Program-made: the position numbers and the translations under genes | Notes under the pieces: generated by a model | What the model saw: the letters and a program-made list of their open reading frames with translations, nothing else | What the model was told of the DNA's origin: nothing | The model's database searches: none | Assembly: GCA_016235445.1 (NCBI GenBank) | Contig: JACRLB010000032.1 | Location: forward strand, 10,373 to 74,372 | Direction of reading: 5' to 3' | DNA from: Chloroflexota bacterium | GTDB taxonomy: Bacteria > Chloroflexota > Anaerolineae > Anaerolineales > Villigracilaceae | DNA length: 64,000 nucleotides | Shown here: positions 1 through 11,173 of the stretch, piece by piece | Layout: every line of letters starts with the position of its first letter | Position numbering within the stretch: the stretch's first letter is position 1

Positions 1-1590
1 ATTCAAATTCTAAATGTATCTGACTGGCATGGCCAGCTTGACCCACTGGTAATTGGCACTTCCCAGGTAGGCGGAGCCGCTACCCTTGCGGCGTATTTCC
101 AGGCTGAACGCGCGGCCAACCCGAACACACTCACGCTCACAGGAGGCGATGCAGTGGGCGCCACACCTCCTGTCTCCAGTTTTTTTGCAGACACGCCCAC
201 GATAACCGCCATGAACATGATGGGATTCCAGGTGGATACATTTGGCAACCACAACTTTGACGGTGGCATTGCCCGTTTGCAAAGCCAGATCAATCAGGCA
301 AACTTCCAATACGTTTCCGCCAATTTGAAAAACCGCAACAACAACCTGAGCGGTGTTAAAGACTTCCAAATCTTTAATCTTGGAGGAGTAAAAGTTGCAG
401 TGATTGGCATCACCAATCCCGAAGCGCCTACGCTGGTATTCCCGGGCAATTTCGGCACGATCACTCCGACCGACCCTGTCAAAGCCGCACTGAAGGCGCG
501 CGACAAAGCTGAAGATCAGGACGCCGACGTTATCGTCGTTATCTGCCATATGGGCGTAACCGGCTTCGATGCGACTGGCGCCCCCTTTGGCCCGCTGATC
601 GATTTTGCCAAAGCCGTTAATAAAGAAGGCAAAAAACATCCGAAGATCGATATCATCATCGGCGACCATACAGACATCCAGTTTAGCGGGATCATCAACG
701 GCGCCATGGTATACGAGAACCGCAGCAAAGGCCTGACCTATGCCAAGGCGGATTTGACAGTCGACACCAAAGAGCACAGGGTTGTGAGTCAGTCAGTCAC
801 ATTTGTAACCCCAACTGTTGCGGCGGTGACACCAGATGCGGCGATTGCCGCAATGGTTGATTCCTATCGCCAACAACTTGCGCCCATTCTAAATGTACCC
901 GCAGGCTCATCGTCACGCTTTATTCCTCGCGCAGATGCCTGCGGCCAATCTGCGGGACGCACTTGCGAATCGCTCGTTGGCAACGTAGTGACAGACTCAA
1001 TGCGTTTTCGTTATGGAGTTGACTTTGCGCTGACCAATTCAGGTGGGTTGCGGGCCAACCTCACCTGCCCAACAAGCGACCTCGCAACTGATTTCTGTCC
1101 TTCCTACGTTCCTCCCCCATACCCGGTCACTCGCGGACAGGTTCTGACTGTATTGCCATTTGGCAACGTGGTTGTGACCCTTTCCATTAATGGCGCGGAA
1201 TTAAAAACCATGCTCGAAAACGGAATCTCCAGGATGCCCGGTGTGGATGGGCGCTTCCCGCAAGTCTCAGGGTTATGTTTCAGCTACGATATTTCAGCGC
1301 CTGCTGGAAGCCGGGTACTCAGCGCCGTTCGCCAGGCGGGAGATGGAAGTTGCACTGGCGGCCCAGTGGACCTGACAGCCGCAACAACCTATACCATCGC
1401 TGAAAATGATTTCATGGCCAACGGCGGCGACGGTTACCCAAATTTCGCGAGCCGTATGGTAACCAGGGAAATCATGGACCAGGTACTTGCAGACTACATC
1501 ACAGCCGCCGGCACAATTGACCCCTCCATTCAAGGCCGGGTCGCTTGCACCACCGCTGGAGTGACAGCCTGCCCGATTGTTACGCCTTAA
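1..1590 (+). CDS. Bifunctional metallophosphatase/5'-nucleotidase, 5'-truncated by the window edge
   Basis: Frame is open from base 1 (IQILNVSDWHGQLDP, the D-x-H-G motif), then GDAVG, GNHNFD and GDHT metallophosphoesterase motifs. C-terminal 5'-nucleotidase domain motifs NSGGLRA, LPFGN, FPQVSG, NDFMANGGDGY. The ORF-track start at 154 is internal. Confidence 0.9.
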   Translation: MQILNVSDWHGQLDPLVIGTSQVGGAATLAAYFQAERAANPNTLTLTGGDAVGATPPVSSFFADTPTITAMNMMGFQVDTFGNHNFDGGIARLQSQINQANFQYVSANLKNRNNNLSGVKDFQIFNLGGVKVAVIGITNPEAPTLVFPGNFGTITPTDPVKAALKARDKAEDQDADVIVVICHMGVTGFDATGAPFGPLIDFAKAVNKEGKKHPKIDIIIGDHTDIQFSGIINGAMVYENRSKGLTYAKADLTVDTKEHRVVSQSVTFVTPTVAAVTPDAAIAAMVDSYRQQLAPILNVPAGSSSRFIPRADACGQSAGRTCESLVGNVVTDSMRFRYGVDFALTNSGGLRANLTCPTSDLATDFCPSYVPPPYPVTRGQVLTVLPFGNVVVTLSINGAELKTMLENGISRMPGVDGRFPQVSGLCFSYDISAPAGSRVLSAVRQAGDGSCTGGPVDLTAATTYTIAENDFMANGGDGYPNFASRMVTREIMDQVLADYITAAGTIDPSIQGRVACTTAGVTACPIVTP

Positions 1591-1612
1591 TTTCCGAACG
1601 ACATTTTCAACA

Positions 1613-1643
1613 AAGCATCCCGTCGCAAGGCGGGATGCTTCTT
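1613..1643 (+). terminator. Intrinsic terminator
   Basis: aagcatcccg/cgggatgctt 10-bp stem followed by ctt, just after the nucleotidase stop. Confidence 0.75.
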
Positions 1644-1691
1644 GTCATATCGATTTGTAAATTCAGCTTCCCTATTCAACGAAGTTAAAAA

Positions 1692-2174
1692 ATGAAAAAA
1701 ATCTTCCCGTTCATATTTTTGTACCTGGCCGCGTGCGCCCCTCTTTCAATGCCTACAGCCCCAACGCTTATTGTTGATCAATATCCAACCCTGCTTCCCA
1801 CCCCAACGCTGGCGGTTCAGATTAAAGTCATTGAAGGGGATGAAAGGGAGGAAGCTTTGAATTTTTTTTATGAATTGAAGATTCATATGGCGGCCGGGGA
1901 ATATCATCACCTCTCAGATGAAATTCGATATCCAATCACTATCAATGTGGACGGGAAGCCAAAATCTTTCGTATTCGCCGCTGAACTGGAGGCGAATTTT
2001 GATAAAATCTTCAGCAAAGAAGAAATTAAAACATTTATTTCCACCGACGAATCGGAGCTCACCTTCACGGCAAATGGCGTAAAGGTGGCGGACGGAATCT
2101 TATGGTTCGATCTGATCTGCATGGACCCTGCCTGTGAACATGCTGAGTTTTTGATTACAGAAATAGATAATTAA
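1692..2174 (+). CDS. Hypothetical lipoprotein
   Basis: MKK-hydrophobic-LAAC lipobox, Pro/Thr linker, acidic globular domain. Confidence 0.75.
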   Translation: MKKIFPFIFLYLAACAPLSMPTAPTLIVDQYPTLLPTPTLAVQIKVIEGDEREEALNFFYELKIHMAAGEYHHLSDEIRYPITINVDGKPKSFVFAAELEANFDKIFSKEEIKTFISTDESELTFTANGVKVADGILWFDLICMDPACEHAEFLITEIDN

Positions 2175-2261
2175 AAAACGTTCAAAAATCAACGGGCGGA
2201 GATACTGTTGATGAGACCCAGCACGATCACGAGTCCATACTTACGCAGTTCAAAATCTTTA

Positions 2262-2418
2262 GAGAGCGTTTCTTAAGTTCTTATCGCCTTCTTTTTGTAC
2301 ACGGATTTTCACGGAAAAGACGGAAAAGAGCGGCTTTTTTTATTGTTTCTTCCGTGAATTTCAGTACGCGAAGCATCCGTGCTGTCCATGTCCCAAAAAA
2401 GAGTTAAGAAATAGTCTC
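2262..2418. mobile_element. MITE-like element with IS5/IS1031-like ends
   Basis: Imperfect TIRs gagagcgtttcttaa / ttaagaaatagtctc, TTA on both flanks, internal 9-nt-periodic palindrome. Confidence 0.55.
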
Positions 2419-2559
2419 TTAGCCGCGAATTGCGTGAATTCCTGCTAATTTTTTCTCTACCGTACATGCAAATAAAGGCCTCCTTTTCCCTCACAGATTC
2501 CCGATTCGCCGAAAATATCTTTAGGGTTTCGTGTAAGGCAGAGAATTGAAAATTAGGGA

Positions 2560-2619
2560 AAATATTTATGATATTTATCTAATATATTGACAAGAAGATA
2601 CCGGGCAGTTATACTGCCC
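2560..2619 (+). promoter_or_regulatory. sigma70 promoter of sufR with two candidate operators
   Basis: TTGACA (2587-2592), 17 bp, TATACT (2610-2615). Palindrome AAATAT-N5-ATATTT at 2560-2576. GGGCAGT-tat-ACTGCCC (2603-2619) overlaps the -10. Confidence 0.8.
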
Positions 2620-2622
2620 AGT

Positions 2623-3249
2623 ATGAAATCTACGCGAGATAAAATTTTACAGACTTTACTGCGAAAACCACGCTCAACCATTAACGATCTCGCCGAAGCA
2701 GTCGGCATTAATCCCATATCCGTGCGCCATCACCTCACCAACCTCCAAATGGAGGGGCTTGTGGAAGGACAGGAAGAGCGCCATGGAGTGGGACGCCCGC
2801 GCCTGGTATATCTCCTCACCGATGAAGGCATGGAGCACTTCCCCACCCGCTACATGAAATTGACTACACGACTACTTTCTCAGATGAAGGAAACCATGCC
2901 GGGGCCGGTCGTGGCTAAATTATTCAACCAGATCGCTGAAGACCTGGCCAGCGAATATACCGAGGATATGAAAAATCTGAGTATGGAAGAACGCCTTGAC
3001 TTTGTCAAAGAAATGCTGGCGCAGGAAGGCTTCACCGTAGAATGGGAGAAAAAGGGCGGGCAGTATCATATCCACGAAATCTCCTGTCCATACTATCAGA
3101 TCGGCGTGGCGCATCCCGAAGTCTGCACCGTGGATCAGACCCTGATCTCAAAAATGCTCGCCCTGCCTGCCAACAAGGTGCAATGTATTTTGGATGGCGG
3201 CGCGCATTGCACCTATGTTGTACAGCCAGCGGAAGTAAAGAGCAAGTAA
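2623..3249 (+). CDS. sufR: SufR-like HTH transcriptional regulator with C-terminal Cys (Fe-S) motif
   Basis: N-terminal wHTH (VRHHLTNL, GVGRPRLVYLLT). C-terminal CPY-x10-C and CILDGGAHC. Followed by sufT. ATG 2623 preferred over TTG 2587, which is the -35 box. Confidence 0.75.
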   Translation: MKSTRDKILQTLLRKPRSTINDLAEAVGINPISVRHHLTNLQMEGLVEGQEERHGVGRPRLVYLLTDEGMEHFPTRYMKLTTRLLSQMKETMPGPVVAKLFNQIAEDLASEYTEDMKNLSMEERLDFVKEMLAQEGFTVEWEKKGGQYHIHEISCPYYQIGVAHPEVCTVDQTLISKMLALPANKVQCILDGGAHCTYVVQPAEVKSK

Positions 3250-3274
3250 ACACCCTTATTAACCCAGAGGAACT

Positions 3275-3619
3275 ATGAGCGAAGAAATTAAAGAAATTCA
3301 GTGGAGCATTCACACCACCCACCCTGAGATCGTGCAACAGGCTCGCGCAAGTCTGTCAGAGGTGGTAGACCCCGAAATTGGAATGACCATCATCCAGTTA
3401 GGTTTGATCCGAAACGTCGAAATTGAAAACGGCGTGGGGCATGTCAAGATGATCCTCACAACGCCCTTTTGCCCTTATGGCCCTGCCATGATCGAAATGA
3501 CCAAAGCCAAAGCCACCGAAGGACTGAACATGCCCGTCACCATAGACATGGGCATGGAAATGTGGGATTTCTCCATGATGGAAGACCCCTCCGCGCTGGA
3601 TTGGGGAATGTACGCGTAA
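3275..3619 (+). CDS. sufT: Metal-sulfur cluster assembly factor (DUF59/SufT/MIP18 family)
   Basis: VVDPEIG-x-IIQLGLI and MILTTPFCP motifs. Confidence 0.85.
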   Translation: MSEEIKEIQWSIHTTHPEIVQQARASLSEVVDPEIGMTIIQLGLIRNVEIENGVGHVKMILTTPFCPYGPAMIEMTKAKATEGLNMPVTIDMGMEMWDFSMMEDPSALDWGMYA

Positions 3620-3656
3620 CAAAAGTTACAAGTCGAAAATTGAAGGTCAAATGTCA

Positions 3657-3690
3657 AAAGACGCCATCCGATTTGGATAGGCGTCTTTCT
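3657..3690. terminator. Bidirectional terminator between convergent genes
   Basis: aaagacgcc ... ggcgtcttt stem with A/T flanks. Confidence 0.6.
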
Positions 3691-3751
3691 TCTTTCCTCT
3701 TTCCTCTTTCATTCACGCGAAGCGCTCATCCTTCACCCTTCATCCTTGCTT

Positions 3752-4399
3752 TCATTCTCCCTTTTTCCAGTGCATGGAATGTGGTTGTTCGCCTTCTGCG
3801 AAACCTGAAATGATGATCAAGGCGTTGGTCACATTCGTGCCAGGGTTTCGCCAGCGATGGCTTAGCTTGGACGCGAACAAAAGACTATCACCCGCTTCGA
3901 GGTGGAATAATTCCTTCTCTACATAATAATCCAACTGGCCGCGCAGGCAGAAGACAAACTCATGGCCGGTATGCACCATGCTGTGCGGGCCGCTGGAAGA
4001 GCCGCTTTCCAGCGTAAGCATGAACGGCTCCACCCTTCCTATAAACTGCTCCCCACCCAAAGCCTCGAACACGCCCCGCGTAAATGACATGCGCGTGCGC
4101 TCGTCCGATTTCAAGAACACCATCTGCTTCTTTTCAGTTTCCACACCGAAGAACGCAGTGATCGAAACCCCCAAAGCGTCTGCCAATTTATAGAGTGTGC
4201 TCACAGAAGGCGAGGTTTTCCCGCGTTCAATCATCGAAAGCGCGTTGGCCGACAAACCGCTTTTCGTGCCGAGCGTGCGCATGGAAATCCCCCGCGCCTC
4301 GCGCAGTTCACGCAAACGGGACGCCACATCCACTGATACTGCTTCTCGCTGAAATGCTTCCATTTGTTCCTCCGGGCTTGGGGGGTTGCAAATATTCAT
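3752..4399 (-). CDS. XRE-family HTH regulator with C-terminal cupin domain
   Basis: LRELREARG...LSMIERGKTSPSVSTLYKLA HTH and HTGHEFVFCLRG...H cupin motif. Exact start uncertain. Confidence 0.88.
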   Translation of the reverse strand: MNICNPPSPEEQMEAFQREAVSVDVASRLRELREARGISMRTLGTKSGLSANALSMIERGKTSPSVSTLYKLADALGVSITAFFGVETEKKQMVFLKSDERTRMSFTRGVFEALGGEQFIGRVEPFMLTLESGSSSGPHSMVHTGHEFVFCLRGQLDYYVEKELFHLEAGDSLLFASKLSHRWRNPGTNVTNALIIISGFAEGEQPHSMHWKKGE

Positions 4400-4538
4400 C
4401 CAAAGCCTGCCAAATTATACCCAATTTTTATATGACATTAAACGAAACTTAAGATGACACAATCCACTATTGTACAAACTGTCACAATATTATGATGGGG
4501 GTGCAAATATTCGTTTATTCACATATAAGCAGGCTCAC

Positions 4539-4886
4539 ATGGTCACCCCTACCCTAAAACAGGAAATCACCCAACTCGAAGCCAACTTCTGTGCGGCGCT
4601 TTCAGACCCGAATCGCCTTCTCATTTTATACTCCCTCAGCGAAGGGCCGCGCAACGTAACCGAACTTGGGATTGAACTCGGGTTGAACCAGCCCACTACA
4701 TCGCGCCATCTCAAAGTCCTGCGTGAGCGGGGGCTGGTACACACCGTCCGCACAGGCACAATCATCACCTATCATCTTTCCGATCCAAGACTCATTCAGG
4801 CGCTTGATTTATTACGAAACGCGATGCGCGACAGACTCGCACACCAGGCAAACCTGATTAATGAAGTTTCACAGGAGAATGTATGA
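4539..4886 (+). CDS. ArsR/SmtB-family transcriptional regulator
   Basis: ALSDPNRLLIL...NQPTTSRHLKVLRERGLV. Stop overlaps the start of the next gene (atga). ATG 4539 preferred over TTG 4470. Confidence 0.9.
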   Translation: MVTPTLKQEITQLEANFCAALSDPNRLLILYSLSEGPRNVTELGIELGLNQPTTSRHLKVLRERGLVHTVRTGTIITYHLSDPRLIQALDLLRNAMRDRLAHQANLINEVSQENV

Positions 4887-6319
4887 AAAACCGCTTCCCT
4901 TCATGGACCTTGGGACTGCTCGGCATAATTTTGCTGATTCTCGTCCCGGTCATTTACTACCTACCCCGCGCCCAATCCAGGAACGACCCTGCGGCTTACC
5001 TGCCCACAAAAGCCGTGCATGTGGATCACAAAGACATCGTCAACGGCGAATTCAAAACAGGGCAGGAAGTAACCCGCGCCTGCCTCGAATGCCACGAAGA
5101 CGCCGCAACGGAATTCATGAAAACCACACACTGGACATGGGAATCAAAACCCTTCGATGTCCCCTGGCGCGACGAAGATGTGACCATCGGCAAAGCCAAC
5201 CAGATCAACAACTTCTGCATCGGCTCACAAGGCAATGAAGTGACCTGCACCGCCTGTCATGCAGGCTACGGCTGGGAGCAGGGGCGCGAAGCCCAGCAAG
5301 CCAACCCCGAAAATGTGGACTGCCTCGCCTGCCATGCCGACCTCGGCTCATACACAAAGAGCAAATACGGCAACCCCGCCGAAGGCGTTGACCTGCTCGC
5401 CGCGGCGCAAAGCGTGCGCGCTCCCACCCGCGAGAACTGCGGAAAATGCCACTTCGATGGCGGCGGCGGCAACGGCGTCAAACACGGCGACCTCGACGAG
5501 AGCCTGTACTTCCCTGGCGAATCACTCGATGTTCACATGGGCGGCGAAGCAAACATGCAATGCACCGACTGCCATTGGACGGAAAACCACCAAATTCTCG
5601 GGCGCATGATCGCAGATAATTACACCATCGACCCCGAAGAACAAGTTTCCTGCGAACAATGTCACGTCGACCAACAGCACAAAGATGAACGCATCAACAC
5701 CCACCTTGCATCCGTTGCCTGCCAGACCTGCCACATTCCCGCAATCGCTCTCGAAGACCCCACCAAAGTCACTTGGGACTGGTCACAAGCGGGTCAGGAA
5801 GGACGCGAGGACGACCACTTCACCTACCTCAAGATCAAAGGCGAATTCGTCTACGAAAAGAACTTCACGCCCACCTATCTTTGGTTCAACGGCAATAACG
5901 AATATCGCTACATCCTCGGCGACCCGCTCGGCAAAGACGGCATCACCTACATCAACAAGCCTGCTGGAAATATCGAAGATGTAACTGCAAAGATATTCCC
6001 GTTCAAACTGCACATCGCCAAACAACCCTACGATGTAAAAAATAATTACCTGCTTCAACCCGTCACATCTGGCAAGGATGGATTCTGGACCACCTTCGAT
6101 TGGAACAGCGCCTTCGAACTCGCCGTACCCATCACAGGCCTCGCTTACAGCGGCGAATACGGCTTCACTGAAACCTACATGTACTGGGCAACCACCCACA
6201 TGGTGCAACCCGCAGACAAAGCCTTGCAATGCGAATCATGTCACGGCGAAAACGGCCGCATGGACTGGGCCGCCCTCGGTTACCCTGGCGACCCAATTGA
6301 ATGGGGCGGAAGAAAATAA
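4883..6319 (+). CDS. otr: Octaheme c-type cytochrome, tetrathionate reductase (OTR) family
   Basis: Eight CxxCH motifs (CLECH, CTACH, CLACH, CGKCH, CTDCH, CEQCH, CQTCH, CESCH), OTR signatures IGK-x5-NNFC and GGGG-x3-KHGDL, N-terminal membrane anchor/signal. Confidence 0.88.
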   Translation: MKNRFPSWTLGLLGIILLILVPVIYYLPRAQSRNDPAAYLPTKAVHVDHKDIVNGEFKTGQEVTRACLECHEDAATEFMKTTHWTWESKPFDVPWRDEDVTIGKANQINNFCIGSQGNEVTCTACHAGYGWEQGREAQQANPENVDCLACHADLGSYTKSKYGNPAEGVDLLAAAQSVRAPTRENCGKCHFDGGGGNGVKHGDLDESLYFPGESLDVHMGGEANMQCTDCHWTENHQILGRMIADNYTIDPEEQVSCEQCHVDQQHKDERINTHLASVACQTCHIPAIALEDPTKVTWDWSQAGQEGREDDHFTYLKIKGEFVYEKNFTPTYLWFNGNNEYRYILGDPLGKDGITYINKPAGNIEDVTAKIFPFKLHIAKQPYDVKNNYLLQPVTSGKDGFWTTFDWNSAFELAVPITGLAYSGEYGFTETYMYWATTHMVQPADKALQCESCHGENGRMDWAALGYPGDPIEWGGRK

Positions 6320-6366
6320 ATGGTAATTAGTAATCGGTAATTACCATTTACCAATTACTAATCCAA

Positions 6367-9075
6367 ATGGAACCGACTATGAAACGATACTCCCTCACAA
6401 TCATTGGACTTCTCCTCCTCGCCCTCGCCATTGGATTTGGCCCCGCTCTCGCCTCGTCCGCGCCTGCTCCAGCCTCACAGGCTTCGACACTACACCCGAA
6501 CTTTATCCTGCTCGATGCAGACGGCGCGAACGTGCTCGAAAGCGGCAGTGCCGTCTCCACCATGCAAACCTGCGGACAATGCCACGACACCGATTTCATC
6601 GCCTCGCACGCATTTCACTCCGACCTGGGATTGGCTGATTATGCCGCATCGAAAGAATCATGGGATGCAAGCACAGGCACGTTTGGTCAATGGAATCCGC
6701 TCACCTATCGCTACCTCTCGCAAGACGGCGATGAACGGCTGGACCTCTCCACCGCTGAATGGTTAATGCTGAACGGCGAAAGAGTCGTCGGCGGCGGACC
6801 AGCTACAACGTCACGCAATGATGCGCCGCTCGCAGATGTAAAAGTCAGCAGGGAAAATCCCGAAACGTCCATCTTGAAAAATGGAAGCCCCACAACCTGG
6901 AACTGGGACAAATCCGGCACGATGGAAATGAACTGCTTCCTCTGCCACCTTGAAACTCCCAACACCGAAGCGCGCGCTGAAGCCATTCACGCAGGCGAGT
7001 TTGGCAATGCCAACACCGCCACTTTGATTGGCTTGAATGTGGTCAATAAATCCAGCGAAGGCTGGGTATGGAATCCTGAATCCTTCAACGAGAATGGCGA
7101 ACTCAAAAGCGAGTTCATCGGCATTCAAGACCCCACCAATGCAAACTGCGCCACCTGTCACGGTGAAGTTCACCCCGAAACGGAAGAGCCGCTCACCCTC
7201 AACGCCTGTGATTTGGATTATCCACAAACTGCCACAACAGGCCAGGTCGTCAGCGGACAGCGCATCAACGAGTCTGGCGTAAACCTGACAGACAAAAATA
7301 ATATCGAGCGTTCATGGGATATTCACGCCGAACGACAACTGCAATGCACAGATTGTCACTACGCTTTGAACAACCCTGCACATGCCAGCGAATTGCAAAG
7401 CAATAATCCCGAGCATCTCGTCTACGACCCGCGCTCGCTGGAGATTGGTGAATATCTCGAAAGACCAGACCATAACTTCGCGCGCGGCGAAAGCGCACAA
7501 TTCAACGTGGCTCCCGAATACAAGGGCACCATGCGCCGCTGTGAAAACTGCCACGACGCCAGCAAGGGACATGCAAACTGGCTTCCATACATCGGAACGC
7601 ACATGGACGCAGTCGCCTGCGAAACCTGCCACATCCCGCAGATGTACGCGCCTGCCATCCAAACCTACGACTGGACTGTCATCACGACAAGCGGTACAGC
7701 GGTTGAAACCTGCCGCGGCGTGGATGGCGACCCGAACGCAGTGACATCTCTGGTGACTGGCTACGAGCCTGTTCTGCTCAACCGCACGAACATCGACGGC
7801 GACACTTTGCTCGCGCCGTACAATCTGATTACGTCCTTCTACTGGGTGTACGATGACGCCAATGGAAACAAACGCCCCGTCCGCCTGGTTGATCTCGAAG
7901 CCGCGTATCTCGAAGATGGAAAATATGCGGCAGACATCGCCGCCGCATTTGACTCAAACGGCGACGGCAAACTCGCCTCGAATGAATTAACGCTTGACTC
8001 TGCCGCAAAGACCGATGTGGTCAAAACAAAACTTGCCGCGCTGGGTTTGAACAACCTGCGCATCGAAGGCGTGGTACAGCCGTACAGCATCAACCACAAC
8101 GTCACACGCGGAGACAGCGCCATCAATGACTGCAAAGCCTGTCACAACGAAAACTCACGCATGTCACAGCCGATCAAACTCACAGACTCTGCGCCCGTCC
8201 TGCCTATTTTTGACGCGGCTAACAACGTCAACAACAGCGGCGAATTTGTCACGGACGCGGATGGCGCGTTGTATTACCAGCCCATGCCCGCCGAAGACAA
8301 CTTGTATGTCTTCGGCTCCAGCCGCGTCAATTGGGTGGATTGGTTCGGCGCGATTGCATTTGCGGGTTCGCTCTTAGGTGTGATCGGGCATGGGACGCTG
8401 AGATATCTCTCGTCGCAGAAACAGCCCAAGGGTCAGAAAAGAACCGAGCGGATTTATATGTACGACACGTATCGCCGCTTCTGGCATTGGTTACAGACCT
8501 CGTCCATCGTCATCCTGTTGTTTACAGGCTTGATCATTCACAGACCCGATATTTTCGGTGCGTTCTCGTTCCGCGGTGTGGTGACGGTGCATAACGTGGT
8601 GGCGGTCATCCTTGTGATCAACGCGGCGTTGTCGTTGTTCTATCACATCACGACGGACAGAATTCGGGAGTTCATTCCGCATCCGTATGGGTTTTTCGAT
8701 GATGCGATCGTCCAGGCCAGGTATTACATCGGTGGAATATTCAAGGGCGAAGCTCACCCCTTCGAAAAACTGCCAACCAGCCGCATGAATCCCATTCAGA
8801 AAATGACCTACTTCATGATCTTGAACGTGCTGTTGCCTTTGCAAACCATCACAGGCGCGTTGATGTGGAGCGTGCAAAAGCGGCCTGAGTTCGCAAATGC
8901 GCTCGGCGGACTGCCTTTCCTTGCGCCGTTCCATTCGCTCGTGGCGTGGATGTTTGGCACGTTCATCCTCGTGCATGTGTATATGACCACCACTGGCGCA
9001 ACTCCGCTCGAAGCGATGCGCGGGATGGTGACGGGGTATGAAGAAGTGGAAGTGCATGAGAGCAAGGATGAATGA
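6367..9075 (+). CDS. Heptaheme cytochrome c fused to a C-terminal cytochrome b (FdnI/PhsC/HupC-like) membrane domain
   Basis: Signal peptide; seven CxxCH motifs; C-terminal TM domain with RFWHW, TVHN, NPIQK, FHS and VHVY His motifs. Start may be 6379 (MKRYSL). Confidence 0.85.
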   Translation: MEPTMKRYSLTIIGLLLLALAIGFGPALASSAPAPASQASTLHPNFILLDADGANVLESGSAVSTMQTCGQCHDTDFIASHAFHSDLGLADYAASKESWDASTGTFGQWNPLTYRYLSQDGDERLDLSTAEWLMLNGERVVGGGPATTSRNDAPLADVKVSRENPETSILKNGSPTTWNWDKSGTMEMNCFLCHLETPNTEARAEAIHAGEFGNANTATLIGLNVVNKSSEGWVWNPESFNENGELKSEFIGIQDPTNANCATCHGEVHPETEEPLTLNACDLDYPQTATTGQVVSGQRINESGVNLTDKNNIERSWDIHAERQLQCTDCHYALNNPAHASELQSNNPEHLVYDPRSLEIGEYLERPDHNFARGESAQFNVAPEYKGTMRRCENCHDASKGHANWLPYIGTHMDAVACETCHIPQMYAPAIQTYDWTVITTSGTAVETCRGVDGDPNAVTSLVTGYEPVLLNRTNIDGDTLLAPYNLITSFYWVYDDANGNKRPVRLVDLEAAYLEDGKYAADIAAAFDSNGDGKLASNELTLDSAAKTDVVKTKLAALGLNNLRIEGVVQPYSINHNVTRGDSAINDCKACHNENSRMSQPIKLTDSAPVLPIFDAANNVNNSGEFVTDADGALYYQPMPAEDNLYVFGSSRVNWVDWFGAIAFAGSLLGVIGHGTLRYLSSQKQPKGQKRTERIYMYDTYRRFWHWLQTSSIVILLFTGLIIHRPDIFGAFSFRGVVTVHNVVAVILVINAALSLFYHITTDRIREFIPHPYGFFDDAIVQARYYIGGIFKGEAHPFEKLPTSRMNPIQKMTYFMILNVLLPLQTITGALMWSVQKRPEFANALGGLPFLAPFHSLVAWMFGTFILVHVYMTTTGATPLEAMRGMVTGYEEVEVHESKDE

Positions 9076-9124
9076 TGAATTATGAAGGATGAATTTTCCT
9101 TCGTGTTTAGAAAAGGAATCTGAA

Positions 9125-9670
9125 ATGACCACTCAAACGAGAAAATCAATATTCAACCGCCCTGAAAAATCATACGTGCATCCATACTTTGGCGGAGTTG
9201 TACTTGGAATTGTGTTGTTCCTGGCCTTCTTCCTCACCGGCAACGGGCTTGGCTCATCGGGCGCAACCAGCCGCATCGACGCGGCTATCGTGGATGCGAT
9301 CTCCCCCTCGCACGTGGATAACAACCCCTATCTATTGAAGATGGCGGGCGGCGAGAAGAATCCGCTGGATGATTGGATCGTGCCTGTATTCTTCGGCGCA
9401 CTGCTCGGCGGCTTTTCATCAGGCTTTTTCAATGGACGCTTGAAATTCATGACCACCAAAGGCCCCAACATCTCGGACCGCACCCGCTGGTTGATGGCTT
9501 TCCTCGGCGGTGTGATCTTTCTCTACGGCGCACGCCTGGCTCGCGGATGCACCTCCGGACAGGCGCTTTCGGGCGGGGCAACTCTCTCGGCAGGTTCGTG
9601 GGTGGTCATGTTCGCCATCTTCGGCGGAGCGTACGGCGTGGCGTATTTTGTTCGGAAATTTTGGAACTAA
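9125..9670 (+). CDS. YeeE/YedE (TsuA-like) sulfur-compound transporter, half-size
   Basis: Hydrophobic protein with GLGSSG and GARLARGCTSG motifs. ATG 9125 follows aaagga. Confidence 0.85.
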   Translation: MTTQTRKSIFNRPEKSYVHPYFGGVVLGIVLFLAFFLTGNGLGSSGATSRIDAAIVDAISPSHVDNNPYLLKMAGGEKNPLDDWIVPVFFGALLGGFSSGFFNGRLKFMTTKGPNISDRTRWLMAFLGGVIFLYGARLARGCTSGQALSGGATLSAGSWVVMFAIFGGAYGVAYFVRKFWN

Positions 9671-9788
9671 CATGGAACTTTTTACCACAAAGTGTCACGA
9701 AGGTACACAAAGTATTACTTGGGGTTTCCTTTGTGACCCTTCGTCTCCTTCGTGGTAAAGATTTTCCAACACCTTCAGGAGAAACATA

Positions 9789-11090
9789 ATGAACTTTCCC
9801 CTCCCCTCTCTCAACGCAGTCAGCGCAGCCAACCCGTGGACGTACGTTCTCTTCGCCGCCATCGGTTTCGCGTTCGGCTACACACTTGAAATGTCTGGCT
9901 TTGGCGATTCGCGCAAACTCGCCGCGCAATTTTATTTCACAGAGATGACCGTGCTCAAGGTCATGTTCACCGCCATCACCGTGGCAATGGTTCTGCTCTT
10001 CGGCGCGGTCGGCCTCGGCCTGCTGGATTTCAGCCAGGTCTGGGTCAACCCCACCTACCTCGCCTCTGGCATCGTCGGCGGACTCATCATGGGCGTGGGC
10101 TTCATCGTCGGCGGGTTCTGTCCCACCACCTCGCTGGCCTCCGCATCCACAGGCAAGATCGACGGCATGTTATTCATGCTCGGCGGATTTGTCGGCGCGT
10201 TCCTCTTCGGTGAAACCGAAAAATATTTCGACGGCTGGTACACCAACGCAGGCTATTTCGGACGCCTCACCCTCGACCAGGTCTTCGGCATTCCCGTCGG
10301 CGCGGTGGTGCTGATCGTCATTTTGATGGCTCTGTTTATGTTCTGGGGTGGGGAACAATTGGAGCGCATCTTTGGTAAAAGGGATTTGGCAAAGGAACCC
10401 AGGCTGAGGGTCGTCGGAGGCGTGGCCCTCTTCGCGGCGGCAGTGGCAGTGCTGGCAATCGGCAGTCCCTCACTCGCAGACCGTTACAACAAAGTCACCT
10501 TCACCCGCACCGAAACCGTCGAACAGTTGAACGCAGACCCCATCGTCAACACCTATGTTTACACTGCGGACGAAATGCTCGCCAACCGACTGGTCTTCAC
10601 CTCGCCTGCCGAGGCCTTCAAGGCAAAATACAACCAGTCCATGAATCCCGTTTATCTCGATGTGCGCTCCGAAGCGGACTACAACCTGTATCACATCGAA
10701 GATGCGGTCAACGTGCCGCTCGAACGAATGCTGGAAGTTGTGCCCGTGCTGTTGAGTGAGCCGCCCGCGAACACGGTTTTCATTTTGATAAGCAACGATG
10801 AAGCCGCCGCCGTGGATACGTGGAAACTGCTGGTAGGATCGAGCGTGCAAAATGTGTACATCCTCGAAGGCGGAGTGAATAACTGGATCGCGTTCTTTGG
10901 CAACGATGACAAAACGCTTCATCCCAACCCGAATGCTGGTGACGACCAATTGGGCTATCTCTTCCCTGCCGCATTAGGCAGTCGCTACGAGTCATGCTCG
11001 CCAGACCCGATCGAATATGAAAAACTTGAATTCGAGCAAAAGATCAAATTGCAATTGAAGCGGGATAAAAGCGGAGGCGGGTGCGGGTAG
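9789..11090 (+). CDS. YeeE/YedE protein fused to a rhodanese-like domain, C-terminal GGGCG
   Basis: FGYTLEMSGF and GFIVGGFCP YeeE motifs; LDVRSEADYNLYHIEDAVNVP and VYILEGGVNNW rhodanese motifs. Confidence 0.82.
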   Translation: MNFPLPSLNAVSAANPWTYVLFAAIGFAFGYTLEMSGFGDSRKLAAQFYFTEMTVLKVMFTAITVAMVLLFGAVGLGLLDFSQVWVNPTYLASGIVGGLIMGVGFIVGGFCPTTSLASASTGKIDGMLFMLGGFVGAFLFGETEKYFDGWYTNAGYFGRLTLDQVFGIPVGAVVLIVILMALFMFWGGEQLERIFGKRDLAKEPRLRVVGGVALFAAAVAVLAIGSPSLADRYNKVTFTRTETVEQLNADPIVNTYVYTADEMLANRLVFTSPAEAFKAKYNQSMNPVYLDVRSEADYNLYHIEDAVNVPLERMLEVVPVLLSEPPANTVFILISNDEAAAVDTWKLLVGSSVQNVYILEGGVNNWIAFFGNDDKTLHPNPNAGDDQLGYLFPAALGSRYESCSPDPIEYEKLEFEQKIKLQLKRDKSGGGCG

Positions 11091-11137
11091 GGGTGGTTGG
11101 AGATTAGAGAATTAGAGATTAGAGATTGGTAATTGAG

Positions 11138-11173
11138 GAAGACTCCTGAGGTTTCGGGAGTCTTCTTTTTTTT
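11138..11173 (+). terminator. Intrinsic terminator closing the otr operon
   Basis: gaagactcc/ggagtcttc stem followed by a T8 tract. Confidence 0.85.

Follow-up and report, generated by a model that had tools for sequence, protein, structure and literature searches.

A 64,000-nucleotide stretch of DNA from a Chloroflexota bacterium (assembly GCA_016235445.1, contig JACRLB010000032.1, positions 10,373 to 74,372; the whole of this stretch is called the window below) carries an open reading frame (ORF) at 6367..9075 on the forward strand in which a heptahaem c-type cytochrome domain is joined to a dihaem cytochrome b. Directly upstream lies a gene for octahaem tetrathionate reductase (OTR), a multihaem cytochrome whose physiological function, according to a 2026 study, was never established and whose electron donor is conjectured (PMC12949373). 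We consider it likely, with a probability of roughly 0.7, that the fusion protein unites the electron-transfer and membrane subunits of a membrane-bound quinol:OTR oxidoreductase built from three modules, and that it is OTR's dedicated quinone link.

The near-universal synteny of the two genes, together with natural single chains that join OTR to the heptahaem domain with or without the cytochrome b, argues for a partnership of the kind that a sequence-only reading of the same DNA had proposed. The electron-wire role suggested in that reading likewise fits a protein that has no counterpart of OTR haem 2 or of its Lys and that offers seven conserved non-motif His residues for seven haems. OTR is thus found here with a quinone-linked wire of its own and with thiosulfate-type transport and carrier genes, across two phyla. 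With this linkage and the natural fusion proteins, the questions of donor and substrate become directly testable, including in the cultured Parasulfuritortus cantonensis LSR1 (locus L076).

Anatomy of the fusion protein

The two multihaem proteins, the only ORFs of this kind in the 64 kb window, and the parts of the fusion protein are as follows.

4883..6319, forward strand: OTR, presumed catalytic subunit, with an N-terminal hydrophobic anchor at residues 9-27 (TIGR04315, PF11783)
6367..9075, forward strand: heptahaem c domain fused to dihaem cytochrome b, ORF of 902 aa
6367..6456, forward strand: signal peptide, by hydropathy scan (hydrophobic core at residues 10-28, then ALA/SS)
6457..8331, forward strand: extracytoplasmic heptahaem domain of about 627 aa with a predicted OTR-like fold (AlphaFold2, Foldseek, hhalign)
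7951..7986, forward strand: EF-hand-like loop DSNGDGKLASNE, residues 529-540, between haems 6 and 7 (family conservation)
8344..8400, forward strand: transmembrane helix TM0, residues 660-678, followed by a predicted K/R-rich cytoplasmic loop (hydropathy scan)
8455..9042, forward strand: four-helix dihaem cytochrome b, residues about 697-892 (PF01292)

The fusion protein contains exactly seven CxxCH motifs, in the order CGQCH, CFLCH, CATCH, CTDCH, CENCH, CETCH and CKACH, with first Cys at residues 69, 190, 261, 327, 392, 418 and 589 (6571-6585, 6934-6948, 7147-7161, 7345-7359, 7540-7554, 7618-7632 and 8131-8145). All seven are invariant in 38 close and 106 distant relatives. Among relatives of 29-50% identity, seven His residues outside the motifs are conserved as well; H43, H84, H320, H369, H412 and H577 are invariant or nearly so, and H402 occurs in at least 90% of relatives. 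This pattern fits a pure wire, in which each haem would have one candidate distal His ligand and no haem would present an obvious open site.

The C-terminal part reaches the PF01292 gathering score by a wide margin (77.1 bits against 30.1), with residues 699-890 covering profile positions 2-179 of 179, and the family profile matches HyaC (PDB 4gd3, E 4e-9) and FdnI (1kqf, E 2.5e-3) in this region, so that the FdnI/PhsC-like cytochrome b named in the sequence-only reading is borne out. Four candidate b-haem ligands, H707, H742, H856 and H870, are invariant in close relatives and align with His residues of HyaC in 4gd3; at the level of sequence they supply the arrangement that goes with two b haems, one His on each of the first two transmembrane helices (TM1 and TM2) and two on TM4. 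H856 and H870 lie 14 residues apart on one helix, a spacing shared with FdnI. The helix that precedes this domain, TM0, is the counterpart of the C-terminal anchor in unfused heptahaem proteins.

The automatic name of the protein, PhsC of thiosulfate reductase, was ruled out. Its model NF011582, the best match in NCBIfam, scores 130.9 bits over residues 661-892 and misses the cutoff of 204, and no gene of a PhsA/PhsB-type protein family is found among the genes scanned at about 150-11090.

Several smaller features accompany this architecture. The start codon of the gene is ambiguous; ATG at 6367 gives a protein beginning MEPTMKRYS, the second ATG at 6379 gives the 898 aa form that the database copy of the protein (P0001) uses, and a strong Shine-Dalgarno sequence is absent before both. 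The EF-hand-like loop has the family consensus ALDxxxDGxLxxxEL, is a helix-loop-helix in the predicted structure, gives weak calmodulin matches by profile (E about 0.5-0.8) and may bind Ca2+. The segment around haems 5 and 6 (residues 391-423; 7537-7635) carries a signature of the heptahaem family, CxxCH..H.WLP...H..L.C..CH, that is also present in PDB 28pb_A, a 278 aa entry described as "Cytochrome c"; its profile match has an E of 6e-4, and it is not among the Foldseek fold matches.

Probable kinship of the haem domain with OTR

The neighbouring protein, at 552 bits on TIGR04315 (cutoff 375), qualifies as a true OTR and contains eight CxxCH motifs, including CTACH for haem 2, as well as the segments GK..NNFC, whose Lys aligns with Lys56 of the Shewanella enzyme (1sp3), and GGGG..KHGD. 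Comparison of the two neighbours by BLASTP yields an E of 1e-8 over fusion residues 255-443 at 22% identity. Family profiles, built from 106 diverse heptahaem members and 77 OTRs and compared by hhalign, align globally and colinearly over the entire OTR with a probability of 99.4%, a score of 109 and a nominal E of 4e-20, inflated by the shared motifs as described below. Haems 1-7 of the fusion protein are thereby paired with OTR haems 1, 3, 4, 5, 6, 7 and 8, and OTR haem 2 and the Lys are left unpaired. At the OTR-aligned places the fusion protein has no CxxCH, NNFC or GGGG/KHGD, and Q stands at the Lys position. Both the motifs quoted in the sequence-only reading and its haem-by-haem pairing are reproduced exactly by these comparisons, as is its statement that haem 2 and the two segments are missing from the fusion protein. 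The local alignment (probability 98%, score 108, nominal E 2e-13, similarly inflated) covers fusion haems 3-6 against OTR haems 4-7 only. An alternative pairing in the BLASTP alignment, which equates CATCH with OTR haem 3 and would make haem 4 the missing one, was rejected, as both the global and the local profile alignments give haem 4.

The stronger line of evidence comes from structure prediction. The AlphaFold2 model of the haem domain alone (residues 29-655, from the 106-sequence diverse alignment and with no haems included) has a predicted local distance difference test score (pLDDT) of 94.3 and a predicted TM-score of 0.93; a full-length model from 38 close homologues was discarded at a pLDDT of 48. 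When the domain model was compared by Foldseek with 350,542 PDB chains, the sole significant match was 1sp3 (E 5e-10, probability 1.00, 468 columns); all other entries have an E of at least 0.12 and none of them is a cytochrome, though the library is rich in multihaem structures. The same entry is the best multihaem PDB match of the family sequence profile (E 1e-4), and a beta-rich spacer of 171 residues before the last haem is common to the fusion protein and OTR. At the level of a predicted fold, the heptahaem domain can therefore be described as OTR-like with moderate-to-good confidence, as the sequence-only reading had proposed.

Membership in a described family does not follow from this kinship. 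On TIGR04315 the fusion protein scores 39.7 bits (cutoff 375; residues 314-437 only), and on TIGR04314, the model for MmcA of Methanosarcina acetivorans, 52.5 bits (cutoff 250; residues 296-597, E 3.6e-14), so that membership in OTR proper and in MmcA were both rejected on curated cutoffs. Ten diverse relatives scanned against NCBIfam score 22-48 bits on TIGR04314 and match the OTR and MmcA models about equally weakly. Because this holds for the fusion protein and its distant relatives alike, the family is best placed as a third branch of the superfamily, belonging to neither. The identity of only about 22% to its neighbour and the similar distances to OTR and MmcA further indicate an old sister family rather than a recent local duplicate. 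Of the sequence-only reading, the OTR-like fold thus stands; that the catalytic haem was "lost" and the gene "duplicated" is unproven.

The closest precedent for such a reuse of an enzyme scaffold is MmcA, an OTR relative with seven haems but without haem 2 and the Lys, which acts as an electron conduit (PMC11024163). The window protein shares the seven haems and both absences and is likewise read as a conduit, but MmcA is archaeal, belongs to the Rnf operon of Methanosarcinales, is about 500 aa long and has no cytochrome b, whereas the protein in the window comes from a bacterium, its haem domain reaches about 630 aa through large insertions and is fused to a cytochrome b, and its gene stands in an operon with OTR and YeeE-type genes. 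With it, the notion that the scaffold of an enzyme can come to serve as a wire would extend to Bacteria. The Shewanella oneidensis OTR shares with it the motif order, colinear for haems 1 and 3-8, besides being its sole significant structural match, but differs in having eight haems rather than seven and a Lys-ligated active-site haem, and it is not membrane-anchored; it is soluble and thought to be served by CymA (PMC12949373).

Gene order, proposed electron route and rival readings

Proteins of this type are widespread. Close matches number more than 1,700, most of them Anaerolineales proteins about 900 aa long, and the haem domain alone (E up to 1e-3) retrieves 766 clusters at 50% identity, a large family to which no Pfam or NCBIfam model extends at its curated cutoff and which annotation pipelines currently mislabel "thiosulfate reductase cytochrome b subunit". 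Relatives occur at 458 species-level genome loci in Anaerolineales and Proteobacteria, including Burkholderiales, Lysobacterales and the cultured P. cantonensis. Gene order was surveyed at 81 fetched loci, 78 of them with upstream DNA. An OTR-like ORF lies directly upstream in 78/78, at 222 bits or more in 77 and at 164 bits in one, and two YeeE-type genes follow in every locus that reaches far enough; the order OTR, heptahaem-cytochrome b, YeeE half, YeeE half with a rhodanese-like domain is essentially invariant. The 164-bit ORF (L075 5959-7905, Burkholderiales bin83, CP070653.1) may be a degraded or divergent otr. Among eight distant family representatives whose contigs were read, OTR adjoins six. 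Within this constant order the modules are joined to different degrees.

Split state (loci L084 and L085, and a JGI contig): OTR; heptahaem protein with C-terminal anchor helix; PF01292 cytochrome b of about 214 aa; two YeeE halves; rhodanese-like protein
Window-like state (L086): OTR; heptahaem-cytochrome b; YeeE half; YeeE half with rhodanese-like domain
Partly fused state (P0213): OTR-heptahaem
Fully fused state (P0226): OTR-heptahaem-cytochrome b as one chain of 1,180 aa, then the two YeeE-type genes

That the haem domain has "gained" a cytochrome b, as the sequence-only reading put it, accordingly describes the window, where the two are fused, but this is only one of three arrangements, since in split forms the cytochrome b has a gene of its own.

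The single chains are informative about how the modules may meet. P0226 and P0213 pass the TIGR04315 cutoff at 564 and 576 bits, and at their junctions the OTR C terminus (DWxALGYxxDP) is followed by a linker of about 10 aa and the mature heptahaem N terminus (HPxFxLLD), with no signal-peptide remnant at either. The junctions fall just after the segment corresponding to the signal peptide of the fusion protein and so mark the start of the mature heptahaem domain. Frameshift artefacts were ruled out as an origin of these chains by the clean junctions, the missing signal-peptide remnant and their occurrence in two separate 50% clusters. Such natural fusions are Rosetta-stone evidence pointing to physical association of OTR with the heptahaem domain, and the position of the junctions suggests that wire haem 1 sits next to OTR haem 8, so that the two domains would follow each other head to tail and not form a symmetric pseudo-dimer.

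The resulting layout mirrors that of FdnGHI and PhsABC, with one subunit for catalysis, one that is anchored and transfers electrons, and a cytochrome b. In the window the second and third are a single protein; in the split operons, as in FdnH-FdnI, the electron-transfer subunit stands in the middle and ends in an anchor helix, and the cytochrome b follows it. PF01292 is also the family of the cytochromes b of FdnGHI, PhsABC and the Hyd-1 hydrogenase HyaABC, but the wire here consists of c haems rather than iron-sulfur clusters, and the catalytic role belongs to a multihaem cytochrome, not a Mo/W or NiFe enzyme. The window protein shares its architecture and presumed role with CbcL of Geobacter sulfurreducens, in which an N-terminal periplasmic, all-bis-His multihaem c domain precedes a C-terminal HydC/FdnI-type dihaem cytochrome b that connects the quinone pool with partners in the periplasm (PMC9129911, PMC11492766). 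Compared by description rather than by sequence, the two differ about threefold in haem density, with nine haems in 250 residues of CbcL (28 per haem; PMC9129911) against seven in about 627 residues of the window domain (90 per haem), which has an OTR-like fold; moreover, CbcL supplies PpcA and extracellular electron transfer rather than an enzyme encoded nearby. A cytochrome b gene beside otr has been mentioned without analysis in genome papers (PMC7509429, PMC6449678), for an Ignavibacteria metagenome-assembled genome as "Otr and cytochrome b561 protein" (PMC7509429). These mentions concern adjacency only; they recognise neither the OTR-like nature of the heptahaem domain nor its split and fused forms nor the conserved YeeE and GGCG genes, and literature searches found no description of the heptahaem-cytochrome b family. 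A conduit on an OTR-like scaffold (MmcA) and a fusion of a c domain with a cytochrome b (CbcL) are thus already known, and it is the OTR-adjacent heptahaem-cytochrome b form that is new.

In the mechanism proposed here, the FdnI/HyaC/PhsC-type cytochrome b would exchange electrons with the quinone pool; in Anaerolineales it would most likely oxidise menaquinol, and its two b haems would pass the electrons across the membrane. Entry into the outward-facing heptahaem domain would occur near the last haem (C589, about 70 residues before the transmembrane helix), and the electrons would then travel from haem 7 to haem 1 along seven putatively bis-His haems held in the OTR-like scaffold. They would leave near wire haem 1 for OTR haem 8 and go on to the Lys-ligated haem 2, where the substrate would be reduced. 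The YeeE halves and the rhodanese-like domain with its C-terminal GGCG suggest a thiosulfate-type sulfur species as substrate or product; the likely reaction would be that of tetrathionate to thiosulfate, the product then being taken up or carried. Menaquinone has a potential of about -74 mV, and the tetrathionate/thiosulfate couple lies well above it and also above ubiquinone. With that couple at +198 mV (cited in PMC8528874), the reducing direction is favoured thermodynamically. A sulfur substrate for OTR is suggested by the YeeE-type genes and by a 36-fold induction of otr with tetrathionate in sediment microcosms (PMC8528874).

Several observations weigh against the role of quinone link to OTR, beginning with those that concern the kinship itself. 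When the CxxCH columns are masked, hhalign significance is gone (E 0.2-0.45), and 12 control OTR profiles, in which the non-motif columns were shuffled between fixed CxxCH motifs, still score 20+-24 globally and 61+-20 locally with a best E of 1e-10. It is because the shuffles still score and masking abolishes the signal that the nominal E values of 4e-20 and 2e-13 must be regarded as inflated; the sequence signal beyond the motifs appears modest and is not significant alone. The match to 1sp3 has a TM-score of just 0.41 on the target and a root-mean-square deviation of 9.8 A, for a haem-free model, so that homology to OTR rests mainly on motif order and predicted fold. These same results speak for a reading in which the haem domain is unrelated to OTR, its CxxCH spacing convergent and the protein a plain fusion of a multihaem cytochrome with a cytochrome b. 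Such an origin is nonetheless highly improbable, as the real scores (109 global, 108 local) lie above 12/12 shuffles, 1sp3 is the only PDB match below E 0.1 as well as the best multihaem match by sequence profile, and the long beta-rich spacer before the last haem is shared. A second difficulty comes from family members with extra N-terminal haems. P0154 (10 CxxCH and a cytochrome b; L087/L088 7001-9841) has no adjoining OTR; its neighbour is a small c7-like cytochrome, with fumarate reductase genes not far away. P0186 (13 CxxCH, separate cytochrome b; JGI 3300047160 contig) occurs, again with no OTR, within an MtrC-like, NapC/NirT-like cluster. Other pathways have thus taken up the wire module, which is not intrinsically specific to OTR. 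Occurrence of these two proteins without OTR, and the reduction of Fe(III) and anthraquinone-2,6-disulfonate by MmcA (PMC11024163), would accord with a general quinol oxidase for soluble or extracellular acceptors, similar to CbcL or MmcA, of which OTR were one client or a mere neighbour. For the protein in the window this is very unlikely, given a gene order that does not vary in its subfamily, the existence of covalent OTR-heptahaem fusions and the lack of any further multihaem ORF in the 64 kb.

The opposite direction of flow is a somewhat more serious contender, if still an improbable one. OTR would then oxidise thiosulfate or sulfur bound to the GGCG carrier, and the heptahaem-cytochrome b would feed the quinone pool, as a thiosulfate:quinone oxidoreductase. 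The operon is indeed present in sulfur-oxidising Proteobacteria (Parasulfuritortus and other Burkholderiales), the SoxY-like GGCG tail, invariant and borne by a domain that probably faces outward, is reminiscent of oxidative Sox chemistry, soxY paralogues adjoin otr in lucinid symbionts (PMC11237559), and quinone reduction is the normal role of FdnI-type cytochromes b. Electron transfer from a couple at +198 mV (PMC8528874) to quinone would nevertheless be uphill, especially in the menaquinone-using Anaerolineales, and purified OTRs are mainly reductases (PMC12949373). For the quinol:OTR reading, in turn, it is a disadvantage that Shewanella otr mutants show no tetrathionate phenotype and that the physiological substrate of OTR is unsettled (PMC12949373), that the case for the fusion protein is computational throughout, and that its energetics cannot be read from sequence, since the position of the quinone site cannot.

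Neighbouring genes and possible sulfur chemistry

The genes and elements surrounding OTR and the fusion protein are the following.

4470..4886, forward strand: ArsR-family regulator whose stop overlaps the OTR start by 4 nt (PF01022, 62 bits)
6326..6363, forward strand: AT-rich, near-perfect hairpin in the OTR-fusion spacer (RNA fold -15.5 kcal/mol, z = -3.6)
9089..9670, forward strand: YeeE/YedE-type sulfur transporter, first half-gene (PF04143, 76 bits, profile positions 162-309)
9789..11090, forward strand: second YeeE half, extra transmembrane helix, rhodanese-like domain and C-terminal GGCG (PF04143, PF00581)
11135..11168, forward strand: terminator-like hairpin, a 15-pair stem followed by TTTTTT, likely the end of the operon

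The second YeeE half (9789-10460, forward strand) matches PF04143 positions 11-196, and at all loci seen the half that resembles the C terminus precedes the other. The product of 9789..11090 ends in KRDKSGGGCG (last codons at 11076-11087), and a C-terminal GGCG is present in 74/74 complete homologues and also in distant split forms (among the loci, L084 5263-5889, L085 9082-9717, L082 4325-5656 and L086 9074-10333). We take this tail to resemble the GGCG(G) sulfur-carrier arm of SoxY. In the active-site loop of the rhodanese-like domain the Cys is replaced by Ser or Ala (ILISNDEAAA), and the extra transmembrane helix after a K/R-rich loop suggests that this domain faces outward, on the same side as OTR.

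Tentatively, the five-gene unit might be read as a hitherto unrecognised respiratory sulfur module made up of OTR, the heptahaem wire, the cytochrome b, two YeeE halves as a split channel, and a rhodanese-like GGCG domain that would face outward; in this reading OTR would act on, or pass its product to, a protein-bound sulfur species. If true, OTR would thereby acquire its long-missing physiological role, and hundreds of Chloroflexota and Proteobacteria would have a quinone link dedicated to it. The genes are common in groundwater and activated-sludge Anaerolineales and may bear on the cycling of sulfur intermediates. The window sequence itself matches groundwater metagenome runs, apparently of DNA; a search over all run kinds returned no RNA runs with it, and no search restricted to RNA was made.

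An ArsR-family gene lies directly upstream of OTR in Chloroflexota loci, with no match in the proteobacterial loci. The regulator in the window has a single Cys (ANFCAALS); the persulfide sensors SqrR and BigR are two-Cys proteins. Hairpins of unrelated sequence occupy the OTR-fusion spacer in about half of the related loci, the others having a gap of 0-10 nt, and the one in the window could be an element of mRNA processing or stability or a small palindromic insertion. Farther upstream, 2587-4399 encodes a PadR/ArsR-like helix-turn-helix (HTH) protein, a small protein of iron-sulfur assembly (PF01883) and a divergent HTH-cupin regulator; the same order is found in a related Anaerolineales genome (L001), so that the conserved neighbourhood exceeds the operon.

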